From a virus (lineage: Duplodnaviria > Heunggongvirae > Uroviricota > Caudoviricetes): 46,266 nt of DNA. Location of the stretch: the IMG/VR virus record IMGVR_UViG_2671180743_000008, one strand, 5' to 3'. The notes beneath the pieces are model-generated. The model worked only from the letters and a program-made list of their open reading frames with translations. It had not been told where the DNA came from and did not search any database. The translations under genes were made by a program, and so were the position numbers. The first letter of the stretch is position 1; every line of letters starts with the position of its first letter. Positions 21,411 through 46,266 of the stretch are shown here, piece after piece.

Positions 21411-21495
21411 CGCCGATAAGCGGGCCATTGAATTACTGGAACAGCGCAGGCTGCAACGACTGAACAACGAGGACAACAACCATGCTGAAAACTGA
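21205..21495 (+). CDS. lysC: LysC-like outer-membrane lipoprotein spanin (Rz1-like)
   Basis: Start at MHVPALFLTLALLSGCT (signal peptide plus lipobox LSGC); Pro-rich; embedded in and overlapping lysB in a different frame. Confidence 0.65.
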   Translation: MHVPALFLTLALLSGCTSTQNASAPPPSFRFIPEGLTAPVLPPPFPVTPSWGNIGIWSDSLMDALETCNADKRAIELLEQRRLQRLNNEDNNHAEN

Positions 21496-23155: not shown

Positions 23156-23502
23156 CAACCCGCTACACAGGAATGAACCCGGACGGGACGGGAAACCTGA
23201 ACGATATGGCGCACCTGAAACAGTCAGTCAGGGACATCCTGACCACCCCGCTGGCAAGCCGGGTTATGCGACGGGAATATGGCAGCCTTGTGCCTGATTT
23301 GATTGACGAACCCATGAATAACACCACGCGTCTGCAATGCATGAGTGCTACCGTGATTGCACTGACACGATGGGAACCACGCATTGCCCTGAACGCCATC
23401 GACGTTGTCTGGAAGGCAGGAGGCCACGCCGGGGTGACGCTGTCGGGCACTGTCATGCAGACCATGCAGAATGTTGAATTAACCATCACGCTGAGGGAGT
23501 AA
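23152..23502 (+). CDS. W: Baseplate protein W (gp25-like)
   Basis: 116 aa; start overlaps V; P2 gpW position. Confidence 0.85.
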   Translation: MTTRYTGMNPDGTGNLNDMAHLKQSVRDILTTPLASRVMRREYGSLVPDLIDEPMNNTTRLQCMSATVIALTRWEPRIALNAIDVVWKAGGHAGVTLSGTVMQTMQNVELTITLRE

Positions 23503-23505
23503 ATC

Positions 23506-24402: not shown

Positions 24403-24925
24403 TTCACTGTTACCACCATCAGCCAGCAATTTCATGCGTTGTGCCGAAGCCGTCGGAACACGCATTACAGACATTCCGGCAGACCTCAACACGCTGTGGT
24501 CGCCGGACACCTGCCCGGTGCATCTGCTGCCTTATCTCGCCTGGGCGTTTTCCGTTGACCGCTGGGATCGCAACTGGCCGGAAGAGACAAAGCGACAGGT
24601 GATTCGTGATGCATGGCTGATACACCGACACAAAGGAACCATCAGCGCCCTGCGACGGGCCATTGAGCCGCTGGGATACCTCATTCGCGTGTCTGAGTGG
24701 TGGGAGTTCAACGGCGAACCCGGAACATTCAAGATTGATGTTGGCACGCTGGACAGTGGCGTGACGGAGGAAATGTATCTGGAAATGGAGCGGTTGATTG
24801 CTGATGCCCGCCCGGTCAGCCGCCACATGACAGGGCTGAATATCATTCAGGAGATTCAGGGAGATATTTTCGCGGCAGCAGCAACTTACGACGGTGAAGT
24901 CATTACCATTTATCCGGACGATTAA
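24395..24925 (+). CDS. I: Baseplate/tail protein I
   Basis: Start at MSNSLLPP (ATG at 24395, overlapping J); 176 aa, the size of P2 gpI. Confidence 0.85.
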   Translation: MSNSLLPPSASNFMRCAEAVGTRITDIPADLNTLWSPDTCPVHLLPYLAWAFSVDRWDRNWPEETKRQVIRDAWLIHRHKGTISALRRAIEPLGYLIRVSEWWEFNGEPGTFKIDVGTLDSGVTEEMYLEMERLIADARPVSRHMTGLNIIQEIQGDIFAAAATYDGEVITIYPDD

Positions 24926-24927
24926 GC

Positions 24928-26964
24928 ATGAGTACCACAACACGAAAATTTAAAACCATTATCACCGATACGGGTGCAAAAAAATTAGCGCAGGCAACCG
25001 CGCCAGATGGGAAACCTGTCCGCCTGACACATATGGCCGTGGGTGACGGCGGCGGTACTTTACCCACGCCAGACAGTAAGCAGACCCGTCTTGTGCATGA
25101 GGTGTGGCGACATACCGTTAATCGCGTCACCCTGGACGCAACACATCAGAACCACATTATTGCGGAGCTGGTTATTCCTCCTGAAACGGGCGGATTCTGG
25201 ATCCGGGAAATTGGTGTGTTTGATGAGCACGGCGATTTGATCGCGGTAGGCAATACTGCCGAAAGTTACAAGCCAACCGTTGCCGAAGGATCCGGACGTG
25301 CACAAACATTTCGCACCATTCTGACCGTATCCAGCACTGCCACTGTGGCGCTTACCGTGGATAACACCATGGTGATGGCCACAGTGAATTACGTGGATGA
25401 CAAACTGAAAGAGCATGAACAGTCACGACGTCACCCGGACGCCTCGCTGACCGCAAAAGGCCTTGTCCAGCTCAGCAACGCCACCAACAGCACGTCTGAA
25501 ACGCTGGCAGCGACACCAAAAGCCGTTAAGGCAGTAATGGATGAAACGAACAAGAAAGCCCCATTAAACAGCCCGGCACTGACCGGAACGCCAACAACAC
25601 CAACTGCGCGACAGGGAACGAATAATACCCAAATCGCAAGCACGGCTTTCGTTATGGCTGCGATTGCCGCACTTGTAGACTCTTCGCCTGATGCACTGAA
25701 CACACTGAACGAGCTGGCGGCGGCGCTGGGCAACGACCCGAATTTTGCGACCACCATGACTAACGCGCTTGCGGGTAAGCAACCGAAAGATGCCACTCTG
25801 ACGGCGCTGGCGGGGCTTGCTACTGCGGCAGACAGGTTTCCGTATTTTACGGGGAATGATGTCGCCAGCCTGGCAACCCTGACAAAAGTCGGGCGGGATA
25901 TTCTTGCGAAATCGACCGTTGCCGCCGTTATCGAATACCTCGGTTTACAGGAAACGGTAAACAAGGCTGGTAACGCCGTGCAAAAAAATGGCGATACGTT
26001 GTCCGGTGGACTTACTTTTGAAAACGACTCAATCCTTGCCTGGATTCGAAATACTGACTGGGCAAAGATTGGGTTTAAAAATAATTCGGATGCAGACACC
26101 GATTCCTACATGTGGTTTGAAACAGGCAACAACGGCAATGAATATTTCAAATGGAGACACCGCATCATTGGCACCCGGCCTAAAGACCTGATGAATCTTA
26201 AATGGAATGCTTTGTCTGTTCTTGTTGAAGCCCTTTTCAGCAGTGAAGTGAAAATATCGACAGTCAATGCACTGAGGATATTTAATTCATCTTTTGGTGC
26301 CATTTTTCGTCGTTCTGAAGAATGCCTGCATATCATCCCTACACGAGAGAATGAAGGGGAAAATGGTAATATAGGGCCACTACGCCCCTTTACGCTTAAT
26401 CTCAGAACTGGCCGGATAAGCATGGGGCATGGTCTTGATGTTACAGGGGATATATTTGCAAACCGTTTTGCAATTAACAGTAGTACCGGCATGTGGATTC
26501 ATATGCGTGACCAGAATGTTATTTTGGGACGTAATGCGGTATCCACTGATGGTGCTCAGGCTTTGCTCCGTCAGGACCATGCCGACCGCAAATTTATGAT
26601 TGGCGGTCTGGGAAATAAGCAATTTGGCATCTACATGATTAATAACTCAAGGACAGCCAATGGCACCGATGGTCAGGCGTACATGGATAATAACGGGAAC
26701 TGGCTTTGCGGCTCGCAAGTTATTCCCGGCAACTATGGCAATTTTGATTCCAGATATGTGAAAGATGTTCGACTTGGTTCACAGCAATATTATGGAGTGA
26801 ACAACTGGCAAACATGGAATTTTCAGTGCCCGTCAGGCTATGTACTGACGGGGATTAACGTACAGGATACCGGAAAAAACTCTGCCGATAATATTGCAGG
26901 CGTTCATTACAGGCCAGTGCAAAAGTATATAAATGGCACTTGGTATAATGTGGCGAGTATTTAA
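24928..26964 (+). CDS. H: Tail fibre protein H, copy 1 (constant N-terminus plus tip variant A)
   Basis: 678 aa; conserved fibre shaft motifs ([62 protein letters not shown]); contains a gix-like site at 25928..25953. Confidence 0.9.
25928..25953. other. gix/pix-like invertase crossover site inside H copy 1
   Basis: TTATCGAATACCTCGGTTTACAGGAA; differs at 2 of 26 positions from the reverse complement of the invertase-proximal sites; lies exactly where the constant and variable parts of H meet. Confidence 0.75.
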
Positions 26965-26965
26965 T

Positions 26966-27493
26966 ATGATGCACTTAAAGAACATAAAAGCAGGTAATGC
27001 TAAAACAGTGGAGCAGTATGAGTTAACAAAGAAGCACGGAGTCATCTGGCTTTACTCTGAGGACGGAAAAAACTGGTATGAGGAAGTGAAGAACTTTCAG
27101 CCAGACACAATAAAGATTGTTTACGATGCAAATAATATTATTGTCGCCATCACCAAAGATGCCTCCACGCTTAACCCTGAAGGTTATAGCGTCGTTGAGG
27201 TTCCTGATATTACAGCTAATCGTCGTGCTGATGATTCCGGTAAGTGGATGTTTAAGGACGGAGCTGTGGTTAAACGGATTTATACGGCTGACGAACAGCA
27301 ACAACAGGCCGAATCACAAAAGGCCGCATTGCTTTCCGAAGCTGAATCAGTCATCCAGCCGCTGGAACGCGCTGTCAGGCTGAATATGGCGACGGACGAG
27401 GAACGCACACGACTGGAAGCATGGGAACGCTACAGTGTTCTGGTCAGCCGTGTGGATACGGCAAAGCCAGAATGGCCACAAAAGCCTGAGTAA
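26966..27493 (+). CDS. G: Tail fibre assembly protein G/Tfa (partner of tip A)
   Basis: Start at [10 protein letters not shown], 2 nt after the H stop; 175 aa; C-terminal 60 residues identical to those of the tfa at 34453..34980. Confidence 0.85.
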
Positions 27494-27498
27494 AAATT

Positions 27499-27518
27499 AA
27501 GGCCCGATATCGGGCCTT
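27499..27518. terminator. Hairpin terminator after G
   Basis: AAGGCCCGATATCGGGCCTT perfect hairpin; a near-identical hairpin recurs at 34985..35004. Confidence 0.6.
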
Positions 27519-27525
27519 ACGCAGT

Positions 27526-28632
27526 GTGAACACCGTTGGCAAATCGGCATTCGTGGAGGCTGTCGGTCGGGCGAGCGATGATGCGGAAGGTTACTTGGAT
27601 TTTTTCAAAGGAGAGATAGGGAAAACACATCTGGCTCAGGAGCTGTGGACGCAGATTGATAACGGTCAGCTTGCGCCTGACCTGGCTGAAATCAGGACGT
27701 CCATTACGGATGTCAGCAATGAAATCACGCAGACCGTCAATAAGAAACTGGAAGACCAGAGTGCGGCAATTCAGCAGATACAGAAGGTTCAGGTTGATAC
27801 AAATAATAATCTGAACAGCATGTGGGCTGTGAAGCTGCAACAGATGAAGGACGGACGCCTTTATATTGCGGGTATCGGTGCCGGTATTGAGAATACGCCA
27901 GCAGGAATGCAGAGTCAGGTGCTGCTGGCGGCAGACAGGATTGCGATGATTAATCCTGCGAATGGCAACACAAAGCCGATGTTTGTTGGTCAGGGCGATC
28001 AGATATTCATGAACGACGTGTTCCTGAAACGCCTGACGGCTCCCACCATTACCAGCGGCGGTAATCCTCCGGCATTTTCCCTGACACCGGACGGAAAACT
28101 GACCGCTAAAAATGCAGATATCAGTGGCAGTGTGAATGCGAACGCCGGGACGCTCAACAATGTCACAATTAATGAGAACTGTCAGATTAAGGGGAAACTG
28201 TCAGCCAACCAGATTGAAGGCGATATAGTCAAAACAGTGGGTAAGGCTTTTCCGCGGGACTCCCGGGCACCGGAGCGGTGGCCATCAGGGACCATTACCG
28301 TCAGGATTTATGACGATCAGCCTTTTGACAGGCAAATTGTTATTCCGGCGGTGGCATTCAGCGGCGCTAAACATGAGCGGGAGAATAACGATATTTATTC
28401 GTCATGCCGCCTGATAGTACGGAAAAACGGTGCTGAAATTTATAACCGTACCGCGCTGGATAATACGCTGATTTACAGTGGTGTTATTGATATGCCAGCT
28501 GGTCGCGGCCACATGACGCTGGAGTTTTCGGTGTCAGCATGGCTGGTGAATAACTGGTATCCCACAGCAAGTATCAGCGATTTGCTGGTTGTGGTGATGA
28601 AGAAAGCCACCGCAGGCATCAGTATCAGCTGA
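27526..28632 (+). pseudogene. Lambdoid host-specificity protein J, C-terminal fragment
   Basis: Open frame starts abruptly right after the G terminator with no plausible start or RBS (first codon GTG); followed by lom, stf and tfa in the lambda order J-lom-stf-tfa; family call from memory of lambda J. Confidence 0.6.
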
Positions 28633-28699
28633 ATTTTATAACCCATATACGGGCGCCAGAAATGGCGCCTTTTTTATTGCAGAAAAGCGAGAGGTAATT

Positions 28700-29299
28700 A
28701 TGCGTAAAGTTTGTGCAGCCATTTTGTCCGCAGCCATTTGCCTGGCCGTATCCGGTGCGCCTGCATGGGCGTCTGAACATCAGTCCACACTGAGCGCGGG
28801 GTATCTTCATGCCCGTACGAACGCTCCCGGCAGCGATAATCTGAACGGGATTAACGTGAAATACCGTTATGAGTTTACGGACGCGCTGGGGCTGATTACG
28901 TCCTTCAGTTATGCCAATGCTGAGGATGAGCAAAAAACGCACTACAGCGATACCCGCTGGCATGAAGATTCCGTGCGTAACCGCTGGTTCAGCGTGATGG
29001 CGGGGCCGTCTGTACGCGTGAATGAATGGTTCAGCGCGTATGCGATGGTGGGTGTGGCTTACAGCCGTGTGTCGACTTTCTCCGGGGATTATCTCCGCGT
29101 AACTGACAACAAGGGGAAAACGCACGATGTGCTGACCGGAAGTGATGACGGTCGCCACAGCAACACGTCTCTGGCGTGGGGGGCTGGCGTGCAGTTTAAC
29201 CCGACCGAATCCGTGACCATTGACCTTGCTTATGAAGGTTCCGGTAGTGGTGACTGGCGAACGGATGCATTTATTGTTGGTATCGGATACCGTATCTGA
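28700..29299 (+). CDS. lom: Lom (Ail/PagC/Lom-family outer-membrane beta-barrel protein)
   Basis: 199 aa with signal peptide; INVKYRYEFTD, VMAGP, SAYAMVGVA and C-terminal AYEGSGSGDWRTDAFIVGIGYRI line up with lambda Lom. Confidence 0.9.
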   Translation: MRKVCAAILSAAICLAVSGAPAWASEHQSTLSAGYLHARTNAPGSDNLNGINVKYRYEFTDALGLITSFSYANAEDEQKTHYSDTRWHEDSVRNRWFSVMAGPSVRVNEWFSAYAMVGVAYSRVSTFSGDYLRVTDNKGKTHDVLTGSDDGRHSNTSLAWGAGVQFNPTESVTIDLAYEGSGSGDWRTDAFIVGIGYRI

Positions 29300-29404
29300 C
29301 AACAGACGCCGATTTATCTTCTGTAAATATTGTTATGATACGCAGGTTCATCCACCTTATGGGGTGAACTGCGTTTGAGGAAACGTAAAGTTACACTGTC
29401 CTGA

Positions 29405-29437
29405 AGCCCGTGGCGTCACTGCTGCGGGCTTTTTTTA
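29405..29437 (+). terminator. Rho-independent terminator after lom
   Basis: AGCCCG ... CGGGCT stem followed by TTTTTTT. Confidence 0.65.
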
Positions 29438-29450
29438 TTGGTGGAAAAGT

Positions 29451-32207
29451 ATGACAGTAAAAATTTCTGGCGTGCTTAAAGATGGCACAGGAAAACCAGT
29501 ACAGAACTGCACCATTGTGCTGAAGGCCAGACGAACCAGCAGCACGATGGTGGTGAACACGGTGGCCTCTGAAAATCCGGATGAAGCCGGACGTTACAGC
29601 ATGGATGTTGAGCATGGTCAGTACAGCGTCACCCTGCTGGTTGAAGGTTTTCCGCCTTCACATGCCGGGACCATTACCGTCTATGAAGGTTCCAGACCAG
29701 GTACGCTGAATGATTTTCTCGGTGCCATGACGGAGGATGATGTCCGACCGGAGGCACTGCGCCGCTTTGAGCAGATGGTGGAAGAGGTGTCACGTAACGC
29801 CTCCGCGGTTGCACAGAATACGGCAGCCGCGAAAAAATCAGCCAGCGAGGCGGCAACTCATGCAACCGATGCTGCAGCCTCAGCACGTGCCGCCAGCACG
29901 TCAGCCGGACAGGCCGCGTCGTCGGCTCAGTCAGCGTCTTCCAGCGCAGGAACGGCATCGACAAAGGCCCGTGAAGCAGCAAAAAGTGCTGCTGCAGAGT
30001 CATCAAAAAGCGCGGCAGCTACCAGCGCCAGTGCCGCGAAAACGTCAGAAACGAATGCCGCAGCATCACAAAAATCGGCAGCCACTTCTGCATCCACAGC
30101 GACCACGAAGGCGTCAGAAGCTGCCACCTCGGCACGGGGTGCGGCGGCCTCAAAAGAGGCAGCGAAATCTTCAGAAACGAATGCATCATCAAGTGCCAGT
30201 AGTGCAGCTTCCTCGGCAACGGCGGCAGGAAATTCCGCGAAGGCGGCAAAAACGTCCGAGACGAACGCTAAGTCTTCTGAAACAGCAGCGGGACAGAGCG
30301 CCTCAGCTGCGGCAGGTTCAAAAACAGCGGCTGCATTATCTGCCAGTGCCGCGTCAACAAGTGCCGGGCAGGCCTCAGCCAGTGCCACCGCCGCCGGAAA
30401 ATCGGCAGAAAGCGCCGCATCATCCGCTTCAACAGCCACAACGAAGGCTGGCAAAGCCACTGAGCAAGCCACTGCAGCAGCGAGGTCTGCTTCTGCAGCA
30501 AAAACCTCTGAAACAAATGCAAAGACTTCAGCAGACAATGCTGCTTCCTCTAAGGCAGCAGCCGCATCGTCAGCCAGTTCAGCGGCGTCATCGGCATCAT
30601 CTGCGTCTGCTTCAAAAGATGAGGCGACCAGACAAGCGTCAGCAGCGAAAGGTAGTGCCACGACAGCAACAACGAAAGCATCAGAGGCGGCAGGCAGTGC
30701 GACGGCTGCATCTCAGAGCAAAGTTGCTGCTGAATCCGCGGCAACGCGCGCCGAGACAGCAGCAAAACGGGCAGAGGATATTGCATCCGCCGTGGCGCTG
30801 GAGGATGCGAGCACGACGAAAAAGGGGATAGTACAGCTCAGCAGTGCGACCAACAGCACTTCCGAGTCACTGGCGGCAACGCCAAAAGCGGTTAAGGCGG
30901 TAATGGGTGAAACGAACAAGAAAGCGCCCTTAAATAGTCCTGCACTGACCGGAACGCCAACAACACCAACTGCGCGACAGGGAACGAATAATACCCAAAT
31001 CGCAAGCACGGCTTTCGTTATGGCTGCGATTGCCGCCCTTGTAGATTCGTCACCTGATGCACTGAACACGCTGAACGAGCTGGCTGCGGCGCTGGGCAAC
31101 GACCCGAATTTTGCGACCACCATGACTAACGCGCTTGCGGGTAAGCAACCGAAAGATGCCACCCTGACGGCGCTGGCCGGACTTACTACTGCGGCAGGCA
31201 AGTTTCCGTATTTTACGGGGAATGATGTCGCCAGCCTGGCAACCCTGACAAAAGTCGGGCGGGATATTCTTGCGAAATCGACCGTTGCTGCCGTTATCGA
31301 ATACCTCGGTTTACAGGAAACGGTAAACAAGGCTGGTAACGCCGTTCAGCGTTCCGGCGATAAAATGACCGGAGAACTGAAAATTGGCACGGTGAATGCG
31401 CTGCGAATTTTCAATGATACCTTCGGTCTAATTTTCCGTCGTTCAGAAGATTTTCTTCATTTCATTCCGACGGCTGAAGGACAAGGCGAAAACGGTAATA
31501 TCGGCCCATTAAGGCCATTCGCTATAAATCTGAGAACAGGTGCTATATCTGTCAGCCACGGGGCCAAAATTAAAGGAGGTCTAGCTATTGGAGCTACTGA
31601 TAACGCACTGGGTGAAAACTCCATTGTTCTGGGAGATAACGACACCGGATTTAGGCAAGATGGAGATGGTATTATTAGCTTCTATTCAAATGGTTCGCGC
31701 ATCGGACATATTGATGAGTTAGGATTACATCTTTATAAAGATATTGAATCTAATGGCAGCAATTTTAGATTAAAAAGTAATTACCGCCACCACATTACAT
31801 TCGCCAACGAAGACGGAAGAATTCGTATGTTTTTGTGGAAAGATAACGGTGGTGATGGTGTTCATATTAATAACGGTTCAGATGGTGGTGGTGATTTCAT
31901 TTTTAAAACAGATGGGGGATTTGCGCTGGGAAGTGGTGCGCAAGTTGCGTCTAGTGGCGATATTTATGGTTCAGTGTGGGAAAACAACTGGTTAAGCACA
32001 TGGCTGCATAATCATGTCGTTCGGGATATTCGTCTTGGCAGCATTGAATATAAAAACGTATGGCGCGACTACGGCTTTGGCGATGCGTCAGGTTATGTTT
32101 TAACAGCCGCAATTAACAGCAATGCGGATGATATTGTCGACACTGTTGCCAGAAGGCCAATTCAGAAATTGATTGGGGGAATATGGTACAACGTGGGGAG
32201 TGTTTAA
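29451..32207 (+). CDS. stf: Lambdoid side tail fibre protein Stf (tip variant B)
   Basis: 918 aa; long Ala/Ser/Thr-rich repetitive shaft; C-terminal half homologous to H but not identical to copy 1 in the shaft (GIVQLSSATNSTSES versus [15 protein letters not shown]); contains a gix-like site. Confidence 0.85.
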   Translation: MTVKISGVLKDGTGKPVQNCTIVLKARRTSSTMVVNTVASENPDEAGRYSMDVEHGQYSVTLLVEGFPPSHAGTITVYEGSRPGTLNDFLGAMTEDDVRPEALRRFEQMVEEVSRNASAVAQNTAAAKKSASEAATHATDAAASARAASTSAGQAASSAQSASSSAGTASTKAREAAKSAAAESSKSAAATSASAAKTSETNAAASQKSAATSASTATTKASEAATSARGAAASKEAAKSSETNASSSASSAASSATAAGNSAKAAKTSETNAKSSETAAGQSASAAAGSKTAAALSASAASTSAGQASASATAAGKSAESAASSASTATTKAGKATEQATAAARSASAAKTSETNAKTSADNAASSKAAAASSASSAASSASSASASKDEATRQASAAKGSATTATTKASEAAGSATAASQSKVAAESAATRAETAAKRAEDIASAVALEDASTTKKGIVQLSSATNSTSESLAATPKAVKAVMGETNKKAPLNSPALTGTPTTPTARQGTNNTQIASTAFVMAAIAALVDSSPDALNTLNELAAALGNDPNFATTMTNALAGKQPKDATLTALAGLTTAAGKFPYFTGNDVASLATLTKVGRDILAKSTVAAVIEYLGLQETVNKAGNAVQRSGDKMTGELKIGTVNALRIFNDTFGLIFRRSEDFLHFIPTAEGQGENGNIGPLRPFAINLRTGAISVSHGAKIKGGLAIGATDNALGENSIVLGDNDTGFRQDGDGIISFYSNGSRIGHIDELGLHLYKDIESNGSNFRLKSNYRHHITFANEDGRIRMFLWKDNGGDGVHINNGSDGGGDFIFKTDGGFALGSGAQVASSGDIYGSVWENNWLSTWLHNHVVRDIRLGSIEYKNVWRDYGFGDASGYVLTAAINSNADDIVDTVARRPIQKLIGGIWYNVGSV
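31294..31319. other. gix/pix-like crossover site inside stf
   Basis: TTATCGAATACCTCGGTTTACAGGAA, same sequence and orientation as the site in H. Confidence 0.75.
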
Positions 32208-32208
32208 G

Positions 32209-32535
32209 ATGATGCACCTGAAAAATATTAAGGCCGGGAATCCGAAAACACCGGAACAATACCAGCTAACTAAAAAACCGCTGGGATACCTCATTCGCGT
32301 GTCTGAGTGGTGGGAGTTCAACGGCGAACCCGGAACATTCAAGATTGATGTTGGCACGCTGGACAGTGGCGTGACGGAGGAAATGTATCTGGAAATGGAG
32401 CGGTTGATTGCTGATGCCCGCCCGGTCAGCCGCCACATGACAGGGCTGAATATCATTCAGGAGATTCAGGGAGATATTTTCGCGGCAGCAGCAACTTACG
32501 ACGGTGAAGTCATTACCATTTATCCGGACGATTAA
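32209..32535 (+). pseudogene. Chimeric ORF: tfa N-terminus (23 codons) fused in frame to the C-terminal part of gene I
   Basis: [23 protein letters not shown] then PLGYLIRVSEWWEF...ITIYPDD, which is identical to the end of gene I at about 24665..24925; junction at about 32277/32278. Confidence 0.75.
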
Positions 32536-32537
32536 GC

Positions 32538-34451
32538 ATGAGTACCACAACACGAAAATTTAAAACCATTATCACCGATACGGGTGCAAAAAAATTAGCG
32601 CAGGCAACCGCGCCAGATGGGAAACCTGTCCGCCTGACACATATGGCCGTGGGTGACGGCGGCGGTACTTTACCCACGCCAGACAGTAAGCAGACCCGTC
32701 TTGTGCATGAGGTGTGGCGACATACCGTTAATCGCGTCACCCTGGACGCAACACATCAGAACCACATTATTGCGGAGCTGGTTATTCCTCCTGAAACGGG
32801 CGGATTCTGGATCCGGGAAATTGGTGTGTTTGATGAGCACGGCGATTTGATCGCGGTAGGCAATACTGCCGAAAGTTACAAGCCAACCGTTGCCGAAGGA
32901 TCCGGACGTGCACAAACATTTCGCACCATTCTGACCGTATCCAGCACTGCCACTGTGGCGCTTACCGTGGATAACACCATGGTGATGGCCACAGTGAATT
33001 ACGTGGATGACAAACTGAAAGAGCATGAACAGTCACGACGTCACCCGGACGCCTCGCTGACCGCAAAAGGCCTTGTCCAGCTCAGCAACGCCACCAACAG
33101 CACGTCTGAAACGCTGGCAGCGACACCAAAAGCCGTTAAGGCAGTAATGGATGAAACGAACAAGAAAGCCCCATTAAACAGCCCGGCACTGACCGGAACG
33201 CCAACAACACCAACTGCGCGACAGGGAACGAATAATACCCAAATCGCAAGCACGGCTTTCGTTATGGCTGCGATTGCCGCACTTGTAGACTCTTCGCCTG
33301 ATGCACTGAACACACTGAACGAGCTGGCGGCGGCGCTGGGCAACGACCCGAATTTTGCGACCACCATGACTAACGCGCTTGCGGGTAAGCAACCGAAAGA
33401 TGCCACTCTGACGGCGCTGGCGGGGCTTGCTACTGCGGCAGACAGGTTTCCGTATTTTACGGGGAATGATGTCGCCAGCCTGGCAACCCTGACAAAAGTC
33501 GGGCGGGATATTCTTGCGAAATCGACCGTTGCCGCCGTTATCGAATACCTCGGTTTACAGGAAACGGTAAACAAGGCTGGTAACGCCGTTCAGCGTTCCG
33601 GCGATAAAATGACCGGAGAACTGAAAATTGGCACGGTGAATGCGCTGCGAATTTTCAATGATACCTTCGGTCTAATTTTCCGTCGTTCAGAAGATTTTCT
33701 TCATTTCATTCCGACGGCTGAAGGACAAGGCGAAAACGGTAATATCGGCCCATTAAGGCCATTCGCTATAAATCTGAGAACAGGTGCTATATCTGTCAGC
33801 CACGGGGCCAAAATTAAAGGAGGTCTAGCTATTGGAGCTACTGATAACGCACTGGGTGAAAACTCCATTGTTCTGGGAGATAACGACACCGGATTTAGGC
33901 AAGATGGAGATGGTATTATTAGCTTCTATTCAAATGGTTCGCGCATCGGACATATTGATGAGTTAGGATTACATCTTTATAAAGATATTGAATCTAATGG
34001 CAGCAATTTTAGATTAAAAAGTAATTACCGCCACCACATTACATTCGCCAACGAAGACGGAAGAATTCGTATGTTTTTGTGGAAAGATAACGGTGGTGAT
34101 GGTGTTCATATTAATAACGGTTCAGATGGTGGTGGTGATTTCATTTTTAAAACAGATGGGGGATTTGCGCTGGGAAGTGGTGCGCAAGTTGCGTCTAGTG
34201 GCGATATTTATGGTTCAGTGTGGGAAAACAACTGGTTAAGCACATGGCTGCATAATCATGTCGTTCGGGATATTCGTCTTGGCAGCATTGAATATAAAAA
34301 CGTATGGCGCGACTACGGCTTTGGCGATGCGTCAGGTTATGTTTTAACAGCCGCAATTAACAGCAATGCGGATGATATTGTCGACACTGTTGCCAGAAGG
34401 CCAATTCAGAAATTGATTGGGGGAATATGGTACAACGTGGGGAGTGTTTAA
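32538..34451 (+). CDS. H: Tail fibre protein H, copy 2 (recombinant: H copy 1 N-terminus plus stf tip B)
   Basis: 637 aa; identical to copy 1 up to [11 protein letters not shown], then identical to the stf C-terminus ([13 protein letters not shown]...WYNVGSV); the switch coincides with the gix-like site. Confidence 0.85.
33538..33563. other. gix/pix-like crossover site inside H copy 2
   Basis: TTATCGAATACCTCGGTTTACAGGAA, same orientation as the other two intragenic sites. Confidence 0.75.
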
Positions 34452-34452
34452 G

Positions 34453-34980
34453 ATGATGCACCTGAAAAATATTAAGGCCGGGAATCCGAAAACACCGGAA
34501 CAATACCAGCTAACTAAAAAAGCGGGCGTGGTATGGCTCTTTTGCGAAGATGGCAAAAACTGGTATGAGGAACAAAAGAATTTTCAGCCAGACACCATAA
34601 AAATTGCTTACGATGAGAACAACATCATCGTTGCTGTCAGTAAAGACGTTTCAACTATTAATCCTGAAGGGCTAAGCATAGTTGAAGTTCCTGATATTAC
34701 GGCAAATCGTCACGCAGACAATAACGGAAAATGGATGTTTCTGGATGGTAAAGTAGTAAAGAGGGAATATACAGAACAGGAACTGCAACAACAGGCCGAA
34801 TCACAAAAGGCCGCATTGCTTTCCGAAGCTGAATCAGTCATCCAGCCGCTGGAACGCGCTGTCAGGCTGAATATGGCGACGGACGAGGAACGCACACGAC
34901 TGGAAGCATGGGAACGCTACAGTGTTCTGGTCAGCCGTGTGGATACGGCAAATCCTGAATGGCCACAAAAGCCTGAATAA
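34453..34980 (+). CDS. tfa: Tail fibre assembly protein Tfa (partner of tip B)
   Basis: Start at [23 protein letters not shown]; 175 aa; follows H copy 2 with a 1-nt gap. Confidence 0.85.
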
Positions 34981-34984
34981 AAAT

Positions 34985-35004
34985 TAAGGCCCGATAGCGG
35001 GCCT
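34985..35004. terminator. Bidirectional hairpin terminator between convergent tfa genes
   Basis: AAGGCCCGATAGCGGGCCTT lying between the stops of the plus-strand tfa (34980) and the minus-strand tfa (35009). Confidence 0.6.
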
Positions 35005-35008
35005 TCTC

Positions 35009-35542
35009 TCATTCTGGTTGTTCGGGAAACGTTACTGGCAGGCTGGAGGTGTCTGTGGATTCGACCTTCTGCGCATAGAGCATCCACTCGGTTAATTTTT
35101 GTTTATTCTCATCGGAAATGATGCCCAGCTGTAGCTGAGAGTCCCACAGCTGGGTTTTATCCCTGACGAGCTGCAGCAGGCTCTGCTTTTCATTTTCCGC
35201 TTGTTGCCTTTGCTCTTCCTCGGTATAAGTTCGCTTTATCACCGCACCATCTTTGAACATCCAGTTGCCCGAAATATCAGCCCGGCGATTTGCTGTAATA
35301 TCAGGCAACTCAACGACACTTAAACCTTCTGGATTAATTGCTGATACATCCTTGTCTATAGCAATAATTATTCCCTCAACTGTGTAAGCCAGTTTTATTG
35401 TATCCTCCTGAAAGTTTTTTAATTCCTCATGCCAATTTTTTCCATCTTCGGACCATAACCAGATAACATCAAAATTCTTTGTTAGCTGGTATTGTTCAAC
35501 GGTTTTTGGATTACCTGCGACAATGTTTTTTAAATGCTGCAT
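35009..35542 (-). CDS. Tail fibre assembly protein Tfa (inverted orientation, partner of tip C)
   Basis: 177 aa; [23 protein letters not shown]-terminus typical of Tfa; opposite strand to the expressed fibre genes, as in Mu G / e14 P invertible segments. Confidence 0.8.
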
Positions 35543-35694
35543 GATTATACCTGCGATACGTTATACCATGTTCCGTTAATTAACTTTTGTATTGGTCTGA
35601 ATACTGCCGGATCATCACCATCGACTTCACCGATAATACCAAGCCCCGTGATTACATGGCCTGATTTTTCATACATCACGCCTTTCTTCATGGT

Positions 35695-36306
35695 CTAAAC
35701 AACTCGTGTGCCAAGTCTGACATCTCTCACATAGCGGGAATCAAAGTTACCGTAATCCGAGGGATTAACACGTCCCGTAATATTTATGGTTTTATTACTT
35801 TGAATGCTTCCGGAGACAAAGCGCATAACATGGACGTTATTAGCATAAACATCCAGATTACCATCGCCTTTTTGTTTAAAGCCCGTGTCATTATCACCCA
35901 ATACAATCGAATTACCGCCAAGAGCACTGGATGTTCCGATACCCAGTGCACCATTCAGTTGACCACCAGATAACGGCAGTGCACCAACATCTCCTGCTGA
36001 AGGTTTTCTGGTGGTGTAAAATTCGGACCAGTCGGCTTCAAAACCATAACCATCACGGGCTGAACGATAAAAAATACCGCCATTTTTATAATTAATCCGA
36101 AACTGAGCTGCAGGACAACTTCCTTCTCCCATATAAAAATGAATAATTAACGTTGATGCACCACTAATAGTTGCGTTATAGGCTCCGCTACTCCAGTTCC
36201 ATCCAACTGCTTTATCATTCGCAACGGTGCTTCCTGTTTTCCCTAAGGCAAACGCACCAACATGACTTGCTTTTAATGTGATATCGGAGGAACCATCAAA
36301 AGCCAC
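35695..36306 (-). pseudogene. Alternative tail-fibre tip segment (variant C), promoterless and probably frameshifted
   Basis: Fibre C-terminal domain motifs ([26 protein letters not shown]); the frame ends prematurely at ...DVRLGTRVV*, while the expected fibre end (...[17 protein letters not shown]) is encoded in another frame at about 35543..35690. Confidence 0.65.
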
Positions 36307-36453
36307 ATTGCTTATTTTCCTGGCAGTTTTTAATTTTGCAGCTGTAGAAGCATTGCCGGATAGTTCACCAGAAAGGCCACCGCTGAATGTTTGTCGATTA
36401 GTCCAGGTATTCGCTGTACTGAGTAACGGTATTTTCTCCCCGCTTGTGCCGAG

Positions 36454-36479
36454 TTCTCGTAAACCGAGGTTTTAGATAA
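36454..36479. other. gix/pix-like crossover site (inverted orientation), next to the truncated invertase
   Basis: TTCTCGTAAACCGAGGTTTTAGATAA, close to the Mu gix sequence as I recall it (TTCCTGTAAACCGAGGTTTTGGATAA); inverted relative to the three intragenic sites. Confidence 0.75.
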
Positions 36480-36533
36480 TGGCGGTTTCTGGCCTGCATG
36501 GCATGATTTGCGCTTTTGGACGGGAGATTCAGC

Positions 36534-36716
36534 GTGCTGATTGGCTATGTAAGGGTATCAACAAATGACCAGAATACAGACCTGCAACGAAACGCTCTTG
36601 TTTGTGCAGGATATGAACAAATATTTGAAGATAAATTAAGCGGAACAAGGACAGGCCGACCTGGATTAAAACGTGCTTTAAAGCGCCTTCAAAAAGGTGA
36701 CGCACTGGTTGTCTGA
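36534..36716 (+). pseudogene. Truncated Gin/Pin-family serine DNA invertase (N-terminal about 60 codons)
   Basis: GTG start then VLIGYVRVSTNDQNTDLQRNALVCAGYEQIFEDKLSG...KGDALVV*; versus the intact copy a TGG to TGA change gives a premature stop, after which the sequence diverges. Confidence 0.8.
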
Positions 36717-36914
36717 AAACTGGACTGACTGGGTCACTGTATGCGGCATCTTGTCGTGCTGGTGGTGGAAGCCTAGAAAAAGTATCGGGTGTTGCTGAAC
36801 CGTGTTGATACATCAACTGCACCTGATATTGAGTGGCCTACGAACCCTGTCAGGGAGTAATCATTGGGATTATGCCGCAGCACGTCTTAAGCAAGAACGT
36901 GCTGCGGTTGGATG

Positions 36915-37583
36915 CTATTTTTTCCCTGAAGCGGAAAACATTACTACAGTACCTTGAACCCTGGTTTTAACATTCTCGAAATGCTCTGAGAGTATATGTG
37001 TTAAGCCTTCTTCGGAATCTTTTGTGTTTGAAAAGATGCCTTTCTGATTGTAAATGCGCATCAGTTTTTGACCGAAGCTATTGTGCACAACTCCATCGCC
37101 AAGAATTGTGGCTCCGTATAGAGTTCCATCAATTAATTTTTGTTTATTCTCGTCGGAAATAATGCCCAGCCGTAGCTGTGAGTCCCATAGCTGGGTTTTA
37201 TCCCTGACGAGCTGTAGCAGGCTTTGCTTTTCATTTTCCGCTTGTTGCCTCTGCTCTTCCCCGGTATAAGTTCGCTTTATCACTACGCCATCTTTGAACA
37301 TCCATTTACCTGAAATATCAGCCCGGCGATTTGCTGTAATATCAGGAACCTCAACGACGCTTGCGCCTTCCGGATTAATTGCTGAAACATCCTTTTCAAT
37401 ACAAATAATAACGCCGTTGTGGTCATAGACCATTTTCAACGTATCAGGCTGAAAGTTCTTTTGTTCCTCATACCAGTTTTTCCCATCCTCTGTATAAAGC
37501 CATTTGATGTTAAATTGTTTCGTTAGCTGGTATTGCTCTTTTGTTTCAGGATTACCAGCAGAAATGTTTTTTAAGTGCATCAT
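36915..37583 (-). CDS. Tail fibre assembly protein Tfa (inverted orientation, partner of tip D), atypical C-terminus
   Basis: 222 aa; the first 160 or so residues are Tfa-like ([22 protein letters not shown]...); the last 45 or so are unrelated to other Tfa ends and run into the deletion scar next to the truncated invertase. Confidence 0.7.
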
Positions 37584-37585
37584 CG

Positions 37586-38329
37586 TTAAATACTCCCCGC
37601 GTTATACCACGTCCCATTAATGCAATACTGAATTGGCCTTGCCTGAGTTGTATCAATTAGTTCATCTCTGTTTGAGTTAACGGAACCGGTAACAACATAA
37701 CCTGACCTGTCAGACCATCCGGGACCATTCCATGTCTGAACAGATAACAGACCACCAAGGCGAATACCTGTAATAAACCTTGAGTTACATTCTGCCTGCG
37801 TATATGCACCAACATCTCCCGCAGAGGGTTTGCGGGTTGTGGTGTAAAACTCTGACCAGTCAGCTTCAAAGCCATAACCATCACGCGCTGAACGATAAAA
37901 AATACCGCCGTTCCTGTAATTCACGCGGAACTGTACAGCAGGGCAGCTCCCCGTATTCATATTGAAGTGGAGGATTAATGTCGATGCGCCACCAATGTTT
38001 GCGTTATAGACCCCGCTATTCCAGTTCCAGCCAACAGCTTTATCATTTCCGACAGTGCTTCCTGTTTGCCCTAAAGCAAATGCAGGTTGTTGATTTTTCG
38101 TGTTGTAGTCTCGTCGCCAGCCAGGAGCGTAAGCATCACCATGATTAATATAAGTGAATTGAGCGTTAGTAATTCCGCCACCGCTGGACGTGCTCGGCGT
38201 GGTAACGCGTATGGTCATTGCGCCGCGAGTGCCAATAACTTCCACCACAGCACCTGCAAGACAAATATTTCCGCAACCTGTATCTGTAATGACCTTATTA
38301 TTTGCATAAGCCCATGAGCCTTTGCACAT
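37586..38329 (-). CDS. Alternative tail-fibre tip segment (variant D), promoterless
   Basis: 247 aa listed; fibre tip ending ...[17 protein letters not shown] immediately upstream of its tfa; the open frame probably continues up to the crossover site at about 38530. Confidence 0.7.
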
Positions 38330-38530
38330 CCAGTAAGGATGGTTAAATGCTCCCTGACTCTCCAGCCACGAAATAAATTGCGCGGTTGTCCAGACCTGAC
38401 TATCGCCACCAATATTCAGCCATGAGCTATATGCGCGGCAGGCACCAATATTTTTGGTGAAGGTATCTTTCCCCGGAATATCTGCGCCGTTCTGGTTTTT
38501 CTGTAATGCGCCAGAAGCCTGATTTACCGT

Positions 38531-38556
38531 TTCCTGTAAACCGAGGTTTTAGATAA
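38531..38556. other. gix/pix-like crossover site (inverted orientation), next to the intact invertase
   Basis: TTCCTGTAAACCGAGGTTTTAGATAA; the 55 bp that follow match the leader of the truncated invertase copy. Confidence 0.8.
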
Positions 38557-38610
38557 TGGCCGTTTCCGGCCTGCATGGCATGATTTGCGCTTTTGGACGG
38601 GAGATTCAGC

Positions 38611-39198
38611 GTGCTGATTGGCTATGTAAGGGTATCAACAAATGACCAGAATACAGACCTGCAACGAAACGCTCTTGTTTGTGCAGGATGTGAACAAATA
38701 TTTGAAGATAAATTAAGCGGGACAAAGACAGACCGACCGGGATTAAAACGCGCTTTAAAGCGCCTTCAAAAAGGTGACACGCTGGTTGTCTGGAAACTGG
38801 ATCGCCTCGGGCGAAGCATGAAACATCTGATTTCTCTCGTCGGGGAACTACGGGAGCGAGGAATTAATTTTCGCAGTCTGACCGACAGCATAGATACATC
38901 TTCTCCAATGGGGCGTTTTTTCTTCCACGTGATGGGTGCCCTGGCTGAAATGGAACGTGAATTAATTGTTGAACGTACACTGGCCGGACTGGCGGCAGCA
39001 CGCGCACGGGGGCGCACAGGCGGACGTCGACCGAAGCTGACAAAAGAACAGCATGAGCAAATAGCAAGGCTGATCAAAAACGGGCACGACAGAAAACAAC
39101 TGGCAATAATTTACGGCATTGGTATATCGACGATTTATCGTTACCACCCCGCAGGAGAATCAATCGGAACAATAGAGAAGAGTCAGGAAACAAAATAA
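38611..39198 (+). CDS. pin: Gin/Pin/Hin-family serine DNA invertase
   Basis: GTG start; VLIGYVRVSTNDQNTDLQRNALVCAGCEQIFEDKLSGTKTDRPGLKRALKRLQKGDTLVVWKLDRLGRS with the catalytic Ser in the YVRVST motif; C-terminal HTH; closely resembles Mu Gin / e14 Pin. Confidence 0.9.
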   Translation: MLIGYVRVSTNDQNTDLQRNALVCAGCEQIFEDKLSGTKTDRPGLKRALKRLQKGDTLVVWKLDRLGRSMKHLISLVGELRERGINFRSLTDSIDTSSPMGRFFFHVMGALAEMERELIVERTLAGLAAARARGRTGGRRPKLTKEQHEQIARLIKNGHDRKQLAIIYGIGISTIYRYHPAGESIGTIEKSQETK

Positions 39199-39226
39199 CC
39201 GCTAATCTGACCATTAGCGGTTTTTG
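39198..39226. terminator. Bidirectional terminator between pin and U
   Basis: ACCGCTAAT ctgacc ATTAGCGGT hairpin followed by TTTTT on the plus strand and an A-rich run on the other side. Confidence 0.7.
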
Positions 39227-39233
39227 TGTTAAA

Positions 39234-39728
39234 TCAGAACAACCCTTTAACTGAACTGGCCGCGCTGTTAAGGGATGATGTTACCTTATCTTTGAAGCCG
39301 GACAGCATATCGCTGAACGATGAGGATTGCAGGCGCTCCCGCAAATCCTCATCACAGCGTTCAAGAGTCAGTGAAAATTCTATCTTTTTCGCCTTACCGT
39401 AGCGATCAAACTCGGAGCGGGTCGTATTCGTTTCGGTCAGGACATACATGCCGTAAATCTGCCCGACGCCATCAATCAGAGGCCAGGGTCGTCCTGTATA
39501 CGCCTGCGTGGTCAGCAGCGACAGCGACACTTCGCCACCTGTAATTTCAGGATAAAGCACACCAGAAAGAACGATGCGCTCATCACCTGCACCGATATAC
39601 TGCCAGCTTGCCGAACGGTTAACGCGTTCATTTTTCACATGCCGCCAGCTTTTGTTTTGCTGTAACTGCTGATGCGGCAATGTACGCAGCTCAAAAACAA
39701 ACATGCCGTAGATCATCATCATGGCCAT
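39234..39728 (-). CDS. U: Tail protein U
   Basis: 164 aa; N-terminus (IYGMFVFELRTLPHQQLQQNKSWRH ... LSGVLYPEITGG) resembles P2 gpU. Confidence 0.8.
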   Translation of the reverse strand: MAMMMIYGMFVFELRTLPHQQLQQNKSWRHVKNERVNRSASWQYIGAGDERIVLSGVLYPEITGGEVSLSLLTTQAYTGRPWPLIDGVGQIYGMYVLTETNTTRSEFDRYGKAKKIEFSLTLERCDEDLRERLQSSSFSDMLSGFKDKVTSSLNSAASSVKGLF

Positions 39729-39734
39729 GACTCC

Positions 39735-42578: not shown

Positions 42579-43058
42579 GCCAGCTAACCACTTCGCCGGG
42601 CGTCATCATGAAGATTTCGGCGGGCGACCAGTTAAAAATGGCGGCAATATCCGCCACAAAGTCTTCTATGTGCTCAAAGCACACAACCGTGATCAGGCTT
42701 CCGTCGCCTGTTCGTTCTTCTCGCCAGAGTCCGCACCGCTCAAAAAATTTACGGCAACCACACATAACTGAATAAAGTCACGGGATGCCATTTTTTTGAT
42801 CGTCACTTCATCCAGTCGCGGTGATGTCACGCGTGACAGCAGCGTAAACATGGATTCCGCTTTCAAATTCAGCACATCAGACAGCGACAAATCTCGCAGA
42901 GATCCAGCCTGCTCAATAGCCCCGGTGATCTCCACATACGTGATTTTTTCGCCGCCTCGCTCAATTGGTTGGGTAAGTTTTACGCCACGCTCACTGGTTT
43001 CTTTCACAGTGTCAGCAACGACCGTGTTTTCGGTATCGATGTTTTTCGTCTCTTTCAT
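42529..43058 (-). CDS. E': Tail assembly chaperone E+E' (-1 programmed frameshift product)
   Basis: The -1 frame is open from the slippery site at 42741..42747 to the stop at 42529; by coordinate arithmetic the frame relationship is -1; same heptamer as I recall for P2 E/E'. Confidence 0.6.
42693..43058 (-). CDS. E: Tail assembly chaperone E
   Basis: 121 aa; ends ...AVNFLSGADSGEKNEQATEA; contains the slippery heptamer U UUU UUG (minus strand, 42747..42741). Confidence 0.8.
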   Translation of the reverse strand: MKETKNIDTENTVVADTVKETSERGVKLTQPIERGGEKITYVEITGAIEQAGSLRDLSLSDVLNLKAESMFTLLSRVTSPRLDEVTIKKMASRDFIQLCVVAVNFLSGADSGEKNEQATEA

Positions 43059-43112
43059 CAGGAAACTCCTTTCAGTCAGAGGCGACGCACTGCGCCGCCT
43101 GCATATTACTTA

Positions 43113-43625
43113 TCAGCCAAGCCCGAGCGCGGAACGGATGCGATCGGGCACAATGTCCCTGCCGTCCTTCCGGTAAATGAAGTTCAGCAGGTCAATCTCC
43201 CACAACGGGCGATCGTTAACACTCAGCTTGTAGTAGGTGTTTTTAATGGCGTAAGTGTGTGATGTGGCTTCGCCCTGTTTGGCTTCCCCCATATCAATTT
43301 CCGTCACACGTCCGCGCATTTCGACTTCATACAGGTCGCTTTCAGCGTCGGTGTAGTATTCACCCGCAAAACGCAGCAGCGTACCGTCAATCGTGCCGCC
43401 ATACTTAAGGAACAGCTCACGAACTGCGCCCCCCATGACAAAGCTCGCATCAAGCGCGGAGTCATCCAGGCCGAGATCAATACTTACCGCTCCCATCATG
43501 CCACCACCCCGGTAGCTGTCGGTTTTGCGCGTCAGCTTAGGCAGAGTGACGGACGTCACCTTACCCACTTCGTTTTCACCATCCACAAACAGCGTAAAAA
43601 AGCGAAGATGTTTTGGTACAGCCAT
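43113..43625 (-). CDS. FII: Tail tube protein FII
   Basis: 170 aa; immediately downstream of FI; P2 gpFII size. Confidence 0.85.
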   Translation of the reverse strand: MAVPKHLRFFTLFVDGENEVGKVTSVTLPKLTRKTDSYRGGGMMGAVSIDLGLDDSALDASFVMGGAVRELFLKYGGTIDGTLLRFAGEYYTDAESDLYEVEMRGRVTEIDMGEAKQGEATSHTYAIKNTYYKLSVNDRPLWEIDLLNFIYRKDGRDIVPDRIRSALGLG

Positions 43626-44809: not shown

Positions 44810-44966
44810 AGCTTCAACCCCTTGTATCCGTTAAATGATTCGGCAACAATCATCACCCACCACGCGCGTAATCTCACCCCTGCGCCATTCTCCCGCCACG
44901 GCGACAACAAAAAGCAGTAACCCCCTCCGCACGCACATGCGACCATGCCACACAGGGAGGGAGCAG

Positions 44967-46076: not shown

Positions 46077-46266
46077 GCAACTTAAATGTATTAACTCAGA
46101 ACGGATCAACACACTCACAACATAGAGTCAATATAGCTGCTCGCTTTGTTCCAGCAAGGATGCCTATTTCTAAGGAAAAACAGAGCAGAAACATATGGTG
46201 TTTTCCTACCTGACATCAGGGGTGGTAGACTGGCCCCCTGAATCTCCAGACAACCAGTATCACTTA

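Follow-up and report, generated by a model that had tools for sequence, protein, structure and literature searches.

An apparent tandem duplication of tail-fibre genes is best explained by mis-joined contigs of a P2-like and a lambdoid prophage

The closest described systems are the invertible tail-fibre switches of Mu (G segment, Gin), P1 (C segment, Cin) and e14 (P segment, Pin), in which the invertase gene lies close by and the 26-bp crossover sites have inverted partners (PMC12529663). An invertase of one prophage can also act on the segment of another, as documented for PinQ on e14 (PMC12529663). In these switches, each alternative fibre C-terminus is paired with its own tfa chaperone gene. 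Invertases of the Gin family have a strong preference for inverted sites in cis, and mosaic tail-fibre genes have reportedly been described among P2, P1, Mu and lambdoid phages, by Haggard-Ljungquist et al. in 1992 and by Sandmeier et al. in 1992 and 1994.

A second relevant comparison is with short-read mis-joins of the Velvet, SSPACE and GapFiller type. In the paper on the Sanger pipeline, joins made from read pairs receive N gaps, SSPACE and GapFiller are greedy and capable of false joins, and no assemblies were more fragmented than the 299 of S. sonnei, which averaged 405 contigs (PMC5320598). Such mis-joins leave placeholders of 1 to 2 Ns between flanks from different loci (PMC5320598), double repeats at contig ends and recur in sister assemblies of repeat-rich species. 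These traits are shared by the window studied here (the whole stretch of 46,266 nucleotides), which is in its entirety draft record CXDL01000021.1 of assembly GCA_001253115.1. We hold with high confidence that the region is a scaffold of four short-read contigs rather than contiguous DNA, and that its apparent duplication and tfa::I fusion are artefacts. It is directly observed that the record carries Ns, that every piece is collinear with complete genomes and that the junction is absent elsewhere. As a literature search found no paper citing the assembly accession, we infer the Velvet/SSPACE/GapFiller origin of this assembly from the style of its accession and the pattern of its Ns, a difference from the usual cases.

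A Gin-type switch and its lambdoid counterpart

The P2-like part of the window carries a tail-fibre switch of the Mu, P1 and e14 kind. The adjoining gene at 38611-39198 (plus strand) encodes a 195-aa Gin-like small serine DNA invertase with the Pfam domains Resolvase and HTH_7, and residues 1-182 match PDB 4m6f/3uj3 'DNA-invertase' (E ~1e-100), presumably Mu Gin. One 26-bp Gin/Cin-type crossover site, TTATCGAATACCTCGGTTTACAGGAA, lies at 25928..25953 (plus strand) inside the fibre gene H, at the boundary between its constant and variable parts, and its inverted partner on the other side of the invertible segment, at 38531..38556 (minus strand), differs from it at 2 bases. Here too, the alternative fibre C-termini are accompanied by tfa chaperone genes of their own. 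Both orientations were seen, although in different isolates and not in one population: 25924-27518 is direct in the window, in draft L016 and in the prophage of E. coli FDAARGOS_943, and reversed in L005, L008 and L010. Because the segment is flipped in these three relative to the window, inversion occurs in this lineage. A Gin-like invertible switch is in itself already known and textbook phage biology.

Unlike in Mu, P1 and e14, the switch belongs to a P2-like prophage, where it is placed between tfa and the U-T-E-FII-FI block, and the same chromosome harbours, in a lambdoid prophage, a second copy of the module that lacks an invertase. The lambdoid stf gene contains a site identical to that of H (31294..31319, plus strand), and the inverted site of its segment (36454..36479, minus strand; 4 mismatches) is followed by a truncated 5' remnant of an invertase gene near 36491-36716. 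Beside the crossover site, the N-terminal parts of H and stf are 93.6% identical over 515 bp, and the tfa genes share an exact block of 168 bp. The stf C-terminus and the start of tfa also match, at 100%, records of ~90-134 kb, which we take to be likely P1-like plasmids. This agrees with the mosaic fibres of P2, P1, Mu and lambdoid phages and is nothing new; it is the known mosaic pattern that makes the assembly ambiguous.

Gaps in the deposited record and the four pieces

We compared 21.9 kb of the window with the deposited record (CXDL01000021.1 22538-44451), and the two differed only at 27519, 32277, 37131 and 37132, where the record has N and the window A. The window itself contains no N, so the Ns of the record were rewritten as A, which, unlike in the usual mis-joins, hides the gaps. 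When the flanks were compared with finished genomes, a switch between loci coincided exactly with each N. At the first gap (N at 27519), the left flank continues in FDAARGOS_943 (locus L001), whereas the right flank picks up midway through gene J in S. sonnei 53G (locus L007, 8070). At the third (NN at 37131..37132), the left flank runs on in 53G and the right one in FDAARGOS_943. The second (N at 32277) is the supposed tfa::I junction. That the Ns are single ambiguous base calls in truly contiguous sequence would fit their length of just 1 or 2 bases, but we find this scarcely credible, since all four lie exactly at abrupt switches between unrelated reference loci, in sister drafts the equivalent switches are marked by Ns too (one a run of 8), and N gaps at read-pair joins are what the pipeline paper describes (PMC5320598).

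The scaffold chains four contigs over gaps of 1 to 2 Ns. Piece 1 (1-27518) is a P2-like arm with gene I (24395-24925, plus strand; TIGR01634 match) and, both recognised by Pfam families, H (24928-26964, plus strand; 678 aa) and tfa/G (26966-27493, plus strand). It terminates 25 bp past the tfa stop, inside a terminator hairpin, and its part from 15000 to 27518 is 99.95% identical to the FDAARGOS_943 prophage (L001 1-12519). Piece 4 (37133..46266), the P2-like right arm, holds tfa and a tail-fibre segment (37586-38329) on the minus strand, the invertase gene, minus-strand U/T/E/FII/FI and plus-strand D. The match of 37112-44208 to L001 12583-19675 is at 97.6% identity; the first 19 bases of this match still lie in piece 3. 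In the sister draft L016, tfa (27518) is followed by 63 bp and then by the equivalent of 37112, with no N between and identical to L001. Pieces 1 and 4 together form both arms of a single, ordinary P2-like prophage that lacks only ~86 bp between the two pieces and is laid out as I-H-tfa, inverted tfa, inverted fibre segment and invertase. The inverted FI-U block relative to D was also considered as an extra rearrangement and dropped, as this arrangement is common to 209 complete E. coli genomes.

Piece 2 (27520..32276, plus strand) comes from a lambdoid prophage; it is 99.87% identical to S. sonnei 53G (L007 8070-12827) and also collinear with other complete genomes. It carries, all on the plus strand, the C-terminal 368 codons of J (27526-28632; NF049904 lambda_TipJ, profile positions 792-1163), lom (28700-29299), the 918-aa stf (29451-32207) and the first 23 codons of tfa, which reach its end at 32276. 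Piece 3 (32278..37130, plus strand) consists of gene I from codon 92 onward (I'), a second H gene (H2; 32538-34451, plus strand, 637 aa), a plus-strand tfa (34453-34980), a minus-strand tfa (35009-35542) and a minus-strand tail-fibre C-terminal segment, followed by the inverted site and the invertase remnant. Its collinearity with 53G starts at 33534, and in the match of 33075-37130 to L007 11381-15436 the mismatches comprise 33 H-type bases left of 33534 and 4 others. Joined, 27520-32277 and 34522-37130 make up one unbroken stretch of 53G (L007 8070-15436, ~99.9%), and the same J-lom-stf-tfa stretch is collinear with two more complete genomes (L009 and L012). Pieces 2 and 3 represent the lambdoid J-lom-stf-tfa region adjoining the trp operon in Shigella sonnei. 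A 222-aa minus-strand ORF at 36915-37583 is also an artefact, because gap 3 lies within it.

The supposed duplication and its fusion gene

The original prediction described an identical repeat at about 24665-25955 and 32278-33565, and this was borne out: 24668-25979 and 32278-33589, both on the plus strand, are 100% identical over 1312 bp. The first copy covers the C-terminal part of I and the N-terminal part of H, and the second begins directly 3' of the N. A second repeat, on the same strand, pairs 31290-32277 with 33534-34521; in the longer alignment of 30831-32277 with 33075-34521 (97.7%), all 33 mismatches are at or left of 31289. The first copy, which contains the crossover site, the stf C-terminus and tfa codons 1-23, ends at the N at 32277, and the second lies within piece 3. 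We read this repeat as a true overlap of ~988 bp between pieces 2 and 3, left unmerged because piece 3, to the left of the crossover repeat, follows the P2-like H/I rather than the stf N-terminus. The unmerged overlap gives the appearance of a second I'-H copy and of a tfa::I fusion.

The junction at 32277/32278 had been taken as contiguous sequence, which fails at base 32277, an N in the deposited record. A chimeric ORF was, as predicted, indeed read there (32209-32535, plus strand, 108 aa), with 23 tfa codons followed by the last 85 codons of gene I, but its frame runs through the placeholder: base 32277 occupies the third position of tfa codon 23, so whether the frame is kept past the join hinges on a gap of arbitrary length. 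This ORF, reading through a gap base, is an artefact. The junction was absent from 5426 complete E. coli genomes, its 40-mers occurred in no other fetched locus, and scans of metagenome contigs and of GTDB species representatives gave 0 matches each, so that it was not independently recovered in any collection searched. Every complete genome retrieved by way of the stf look-up carries the 40-mer of the normal tfa continuation. An exact-protein look-up of the chimeric ORF returned no match, as expected, because residue 23 is ambiguous in the record. A quasi-site or secondary crossover at 32277/32278 had also been considered; the half-site likeness was weak (GGATAC only), and the idea was dropped when the record proved to have an N there.

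The main reading of the original prediction was a true tandem duplication with later deletion; the unit would be the 7.6-kb I'-H-tfa-J'-lom-stf-tfa', and the deletion would lie between the direct sites in copy 2. As the order stands in the window, copy 2 does equal copy 1 minus the 5366 bp that separate the direct sites at 25928 and 31294, in agreement with the ~5.3 kb first estimated. This reading is nevertheless very improbable. Its junction is an N rather than uninterrupted determined sequence, shows no microhomology and is found nowhere else; it requires a true insertion of the lambdoid block in the P2-like prophage, although that block has Ns at either border; and in all complete genomes examined the two loci are separate and single-copy. 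Among the matches listed for the exact 678-aa H, 7/7 places show one I-H-tfa unit with the P2-like right arm after it, and 0/7 a J-lom-stf block between or a second I-H copy.

Sister drafts pointed the same way. In L005, L006, L010 and L016, extra I/H blocks follow directly after Ns at varied positions, starting at the window equivalents of 21866, 24414, ~24666, 24668 and 24997, and the duplicates do not differ from one another before the crossover site. Two of the starts are only 2 bp apart, those of the I' block in the window and in L016, two independent drafts; this agreement fits our reading less well and hints at a fixed boundary in the assembly graph. Two distinct P2-like genomic copies were considered for L005 and L006 and rejected, as no SNPs separate the I-H blocks up to the crossover site.

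In the mis-join reading, the cause was presumably an assembly graph tangled by exact stretches of 56 to 168 bp near the Gin-type sites and in the tfa genes (the two prophages share stretches of 168, 122, 95, 87, 77 and 56 bp). Greedy scaffolding and gap filling of the Velvet/SSPACE/GapFiller kind would then have produced false joins, and a population mixed for the inversion state may have added to the tangle. The original prediction had kept an assembly problem linked to the invertase system as a fallback. This points in the right direction, but we favour another mechanism than the collapse of a mixed population: contigs of a P2-like and a lambdoid prophage seem to have been joined across gaps of 1 to 2 Ns and threaded through a shared site. 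That the scaffolder made these joins implies that some read pairs linked the pieces, which may be truly adjacent across a short unsequenced gap.

The hybrid H gene

H2 is the only gap-free novelty of the region. The earlier description of a second H gene that follows the first to the crossover site and then takes the stf C-terminus is correct as sequence: H and H2 share their first 352 residues and part immediately after the site, and H2 and stf share their last 335. The switch falls somewhere within 33534-33589 (25924-25979 in H). Over these 56 bp H and stf do not differ, and the stretch includes the 26-bp site, present in H2 at 33538..33563 (plus strand).

H2 is probably a repeat-threading error, in which the repeat at the shared crossover site would have let one contig connect the H N-terminus with the stf C-terminus, and less probably a real recombinant. 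In the latter case, an inter-prophage H-stf recombinant would exist in part or all of the culture, formed by the P2-like Gin-like invertase or by homologous recombination over the 515-bp repeat, and H2 and genuine read-pair links between the prophages would have misled the scaffolder; the tandem layout would still be an artefact. We consider this unlikely, although several observations are in its favour. The switch interval holds a site identical in H and stf, in three other drafts H2 follows without a break on complete I, J and upstream genes, the flipped segment in L005, L008 and L010 speaks for active inversion, and PinQ on e14 is a precedent for an invertase acting across prophages (PMC12529663). 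P2-type H genes that end in this stf-type C-terminus moreover occur in complete genomes, such as that of E. coli 4238 (97.6% over the switch).

Against it, exact H2 is confined to 4 draft scaffolds of 20-50 kb and occurs in no complete genome, whereas exact copies of the 678-aa H are found in 228 blocks of the collection (18 with contigs >1 Mb) and of the 918-aa stf in 272 (6 with contigs >1 Mb). The shared stretches of 56-95 bp are interrupted by single SNPs and would let a de Bruijn assembler or gap filler cross between loci. The reciprocal product (stf N-terminus with H C-terminus) was not seen among the matches listed for any fetched locus, and the general preference of Gin-family invertases for inverted sites in cis also speaks against such a recombinant. 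More doubtful again is the specific proposal that the invertase of the P2-like prophage recombines the H site with the identical lambdoid stf site at another place on the S. sonnei chromosome.

Neither the tandem duplication nor the tfa::I fusion protein should be believed or annotated, and both carry little biological weight. Replacement of N by A in such windows can create false junctions and false in-frame ORFs, and any finding of a chimeric junction should first be compared with the deposited record. The real content of the region is a Gin-type switch in a P2-like prophage together with a homologous, invertase-less lambdoid module. The exchange of fibre C-termini between prophages at identical crossover sites is the one point worth attention at the read level: if H2 were real, two unrelated prophages would exchange tail-fibre C-termini, with a large chromosomal rearrangement as a by-product, and it would be the mixed population arising from this that tangles the assemblies.

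Repeats and the second H gene in the window

As letters in the window, the features of the original prediction, namely an I/H repeat, a recombinant second H gene and a tfa::I ORF, were borne out by self-comparison of the window and by protein comparison. The repeats are real in this sense: 24668-25979 was 100% identical to 32278-33589 over 1312 bp, 30831-32277 matched 33075-34521 at 97.7%, and 25465-25979 matched 30831-31345 at 93.6%. All 33 mismatches in the second of these pairs were found at or left of position 31289, and the block 32278-34521 therefore corresponds exactly to 24668-25979 followed by 31346-32277. The switch from H (the 678-aa P2-like fibre gene) to stf (the 918-aa lambdoid fibre gene) fell within 56 bp (25924-25979, equal to 31290-31345) in which the two genes do not differ. 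At the level of protein sequence, the second H gene (H2; 32538-34451, 637 aa) had its N-terminal 352 residues in common with H and its C-terminal 335 residues in common with stf. The ORF at 32209-32535 was composed of 23 tfa codons followed by the 3'-terminal 85 codons of gene I, and no microhomology was found in the window sequence at the 32277/32278 join.

Gap placeholders and the origin of the four pieces

We compared the deposited record (CXDL01000021.1) with the window base by base over window positions 22538-44451. Only four differences were observed, at 27519, 32277, 37131, and 37132; the record has N at all four, whereas the window has A there and no N anywhere. The placeholders for gaps have thus been turned into A, and further positions of this kind may lie outside the compared range. 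Since base 32277 is N in the record, the supposed tfa::I junction is a one-N gap, and since this N occupies the third position of tfa codon 23, the in-frame fusion hangs on a placeholder. In an exact-protein look-up, H2 was found in CXDL01000021.1, a contig of assembly GCA_001253115.1 with the window's length of 46,266 bp, at the same coordinates as in the window, and the chimeric tfa::I protein had no entry on record, because its codon 23 holds an N in the deposited sequence. Two more ORFs are gap artefacts: a 222-aa ORF on the minus strand (36915-37583), in which lambdoid sequence is fused across the NN at 37131-2 to the P2-like tfa, and a 368-aa ORF on the plus strand (27526-28632), which is the C-terminal third of a lambda-type J and starts where a contig starts.

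The Ns divide the window into four pieces (1-27518, 27520-32276, 32278-37130, and 37133-46266). Window 15000-27518 was 99.95% identical to a P2-like prophage in the complete Escherichia coli FDAARGOS_943 genome, and the match picked up again at 37112 with 97.6% identity; about 86 bp of that prophage, 12520-12605 of the fetched locus, were absent between the end of the first piece and the start of the fourth. The order in this reference is J-I-H(678)-tfa, inverted tfa, inverted fibre segment, recombinase and U-T-E-FII-FI. In one sister draft (L016), the tfa end (27518) was followed by 63 bp identical to FDAARGOS_943 and then by the equivalent of window 37112, with no intervening N. Window 27520-32277 and 34522-37130 together made up a single unbroken stretch of the Shigella sonnei 53G chromosome (HE616528.1; PMC10673971), at 8070-15436 of the fetched locus and with ~99.9% identity. 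This stretch is lambdoid, has the order J-lom-stf-tfa-(inverted tfa)-(inverted fibre segment) and lies next to the trp operon; it was also present in two further complete genomes (L009 and L012). At every N, the left flank was collinear with one of the two references and the right flank with the other. From these alignments, the contig reads as a P2-like arm, an N, lambdoid part 1, an N, an I'-H-N block (I' being a partial second copy of gene I) with lambdoid part 2, an NN and a P2-like arm.

The U-T-E-FII-FI tail block (39234-44809, minus strand) lies on the strand opposite to D (44835-46076, plus strand) and H/G. In phage P2, this block is not opposed in strand to D and H/G. The opposed layout was common to 209 complete E. 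coli genomes, and it is therefore normal for this prophage group.

We also looked for the junction elsewhere. A 301-bp probe across 32277 had no match of at least 80% coverage in 5426 complete E. coli genomes, where its matches ended at the join or within 3 bases of it, and the junction pattern, with any base allowed at the N, was found neither in the metagenome collection nor in the GTDB species representatives. In every fetched locus with this tfa, complete genomes included, the usual tfa continuation followed codon 23. The protein-position index had the exact 678-aa H in 228 blocks, of which 18 were on contigs >1 Mb. All seven places shown had a single I-H-tfa unit and then the P2-like right arm, some with inverted segments or the invertase lost or with IS insertions; a second I-H copy or an intervening J-lom-stf block was seen in none of the seven.

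The sister drafts, i.e., other assemblies with the same accession style, interleaved the two prophages in differing ways, with joins at Ns. After eight Ns, L005 had a second I-H block starting at the window equivalent of 24414; after an N, L006 had a second S-V-W-J-I-H block (from 21866), L010 an H block (from 24997) and L016 an I'-H block (from ~24666, at most 2 bp from the start in the window), and in L008 an N separated lambdoid from P2-like parts. Apart from the near-coincidence of the window and L016, such varied starts next to Ns fit greedy extension of contig ends into a repeat rather than a fixed biological breakpoint. Both I-H copies in L005 and L006 were identical as far as the crossover site, and these drafts therefore do not support the presence of two separate copies in the genome.

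Together, a genuine I/H tandem duplication with a tfa::I ORF is not upheld, as the junction base is N in the record, each flank comes from a different locus and the junction was not found elsewhere in the collections searched. We conclude that the duplication and its chimeric ORF arose because contigs were scaffolded across gaps and the Ns were converted to A, and that they are not a real feature.

Assembly of the homologous fibre modules and the status of H2

The P2-like and lambdoid prophages carry homologous tail-fibre modules. Their tfa genes had an exact 168 bp in common (27298-27465 and 34785-34952), the prophages shared an exact 122 bp beside the inverted crossover site and the invertase 5' end, and the N-terminal parts of H and stf had exact common stretches of 95, 87, 77, and 56 bp. 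Outside the 168-bp block, the two tfa genes were ~82% identical; the block looks like a patch that was recently exchanged, or copied by gene conversion, between the chaperone genes of the two prophages. We infer that the assembly was made by the Sanger high-throughput pipeline; no paper citing its accession was found in a literature search. In that pipeline, Velvet is run with k at 66-90% of read length, contig joins made from read pairs receive N gaps, and SSPACE and GapFiller are greedy and may join contigs wrongly; among the species listed, S. sonnei had the most fragmented assemblies (299 assemblies, mean of 405 contigs) (PMC5320598). The second and third pieces would truly overlap by ~988 bp (31290-32277 and 33534-34521), and would have stayed unmerged because the third piece, left of the shared 56 bp, runs along H/I sequence instead of stf.

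The second H gene follows H up to the crossover site and then takes the stf C-terminus; this description stood, while the second I-H copy, which follows an N, did not stand as a real tandem duplication. H2 could still be a real recombinant: it is gap-free, it is contiguous with the full P2-like left arm in L003, L005, and L006, the crossover site lies inside its switch interval, and comparable H genes with this stf-type C-terminus occur in complete genomes. One example is E. coli 4238 (NZ_CP103533.1; 97.6% over an 801-bp probe), where such a P2-like H is followed by tfa and then by only the remnant of the invertase HTH (6207-8997 of the fetched locus), a module that appears to be a fixed version in which inversion is no longer possible. 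However, exact H2 was limited to four draft scaffolds of 20 to 50 kb and was found in no complete genome (exact-protein look-up), and the exact stretches common to both prophages could give rise to it by technical means alone. We therefore regard a real recombinant as unlikely and favor an assembly product.

The invertible tail-fibre switch

The ORF at 38611-39198 matched the solved "DNA-invertase" structures 4m6f and 3uj3 (E ~1e-100), which we take to be phage Mu Gin. A 26-bp crossover site, TTATCGAATACCTCGGTTTACAGGAA, was the same in H, stf, and H2, and presumably differs from Mu gix at two positions only; inverted partner sites were found at 38531 (2 mismatches) and 36454 (4 mismatches). 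That P2-like, P1-like, and lambdoid phages have fibre modules in common has long been known. The stf C-terminus and tfa start (32130-32277) were 99 to 100% identical to tail-fibre/tfa genes in E. coli records of ~90-134 kb, which from their size we assume to be P1-like phage-plasmids. A truncated 5' invertase remnant adjoins the inverted crossover site in the lambdoid region (36491-36716), with 122 bp identical to 38568-38689. The lambdoid region of 53G has no intact invertase, and inversion there would therefore need one in trans, e.g., that of the P2-like prophage.

The P2-like invertible segment (25924-27518 and 37118-38560) had one orientation in the window, L016, and FDAARGOS_943 and the opposite one in L005, L008, and L010; in the latter three, H is joined to the 247-aa-type segment and the C1-tfa unit is inverted. 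The tail-fibre switch of the P2-like prophage is of an already known type, that of the Gin/Cin/Pin switches (PMC12529663). The finding as a whole is of low biological interest; the opposite segment orientations in assemblies of different isolates indicate that a Gin-like invertase is active in this lineage.
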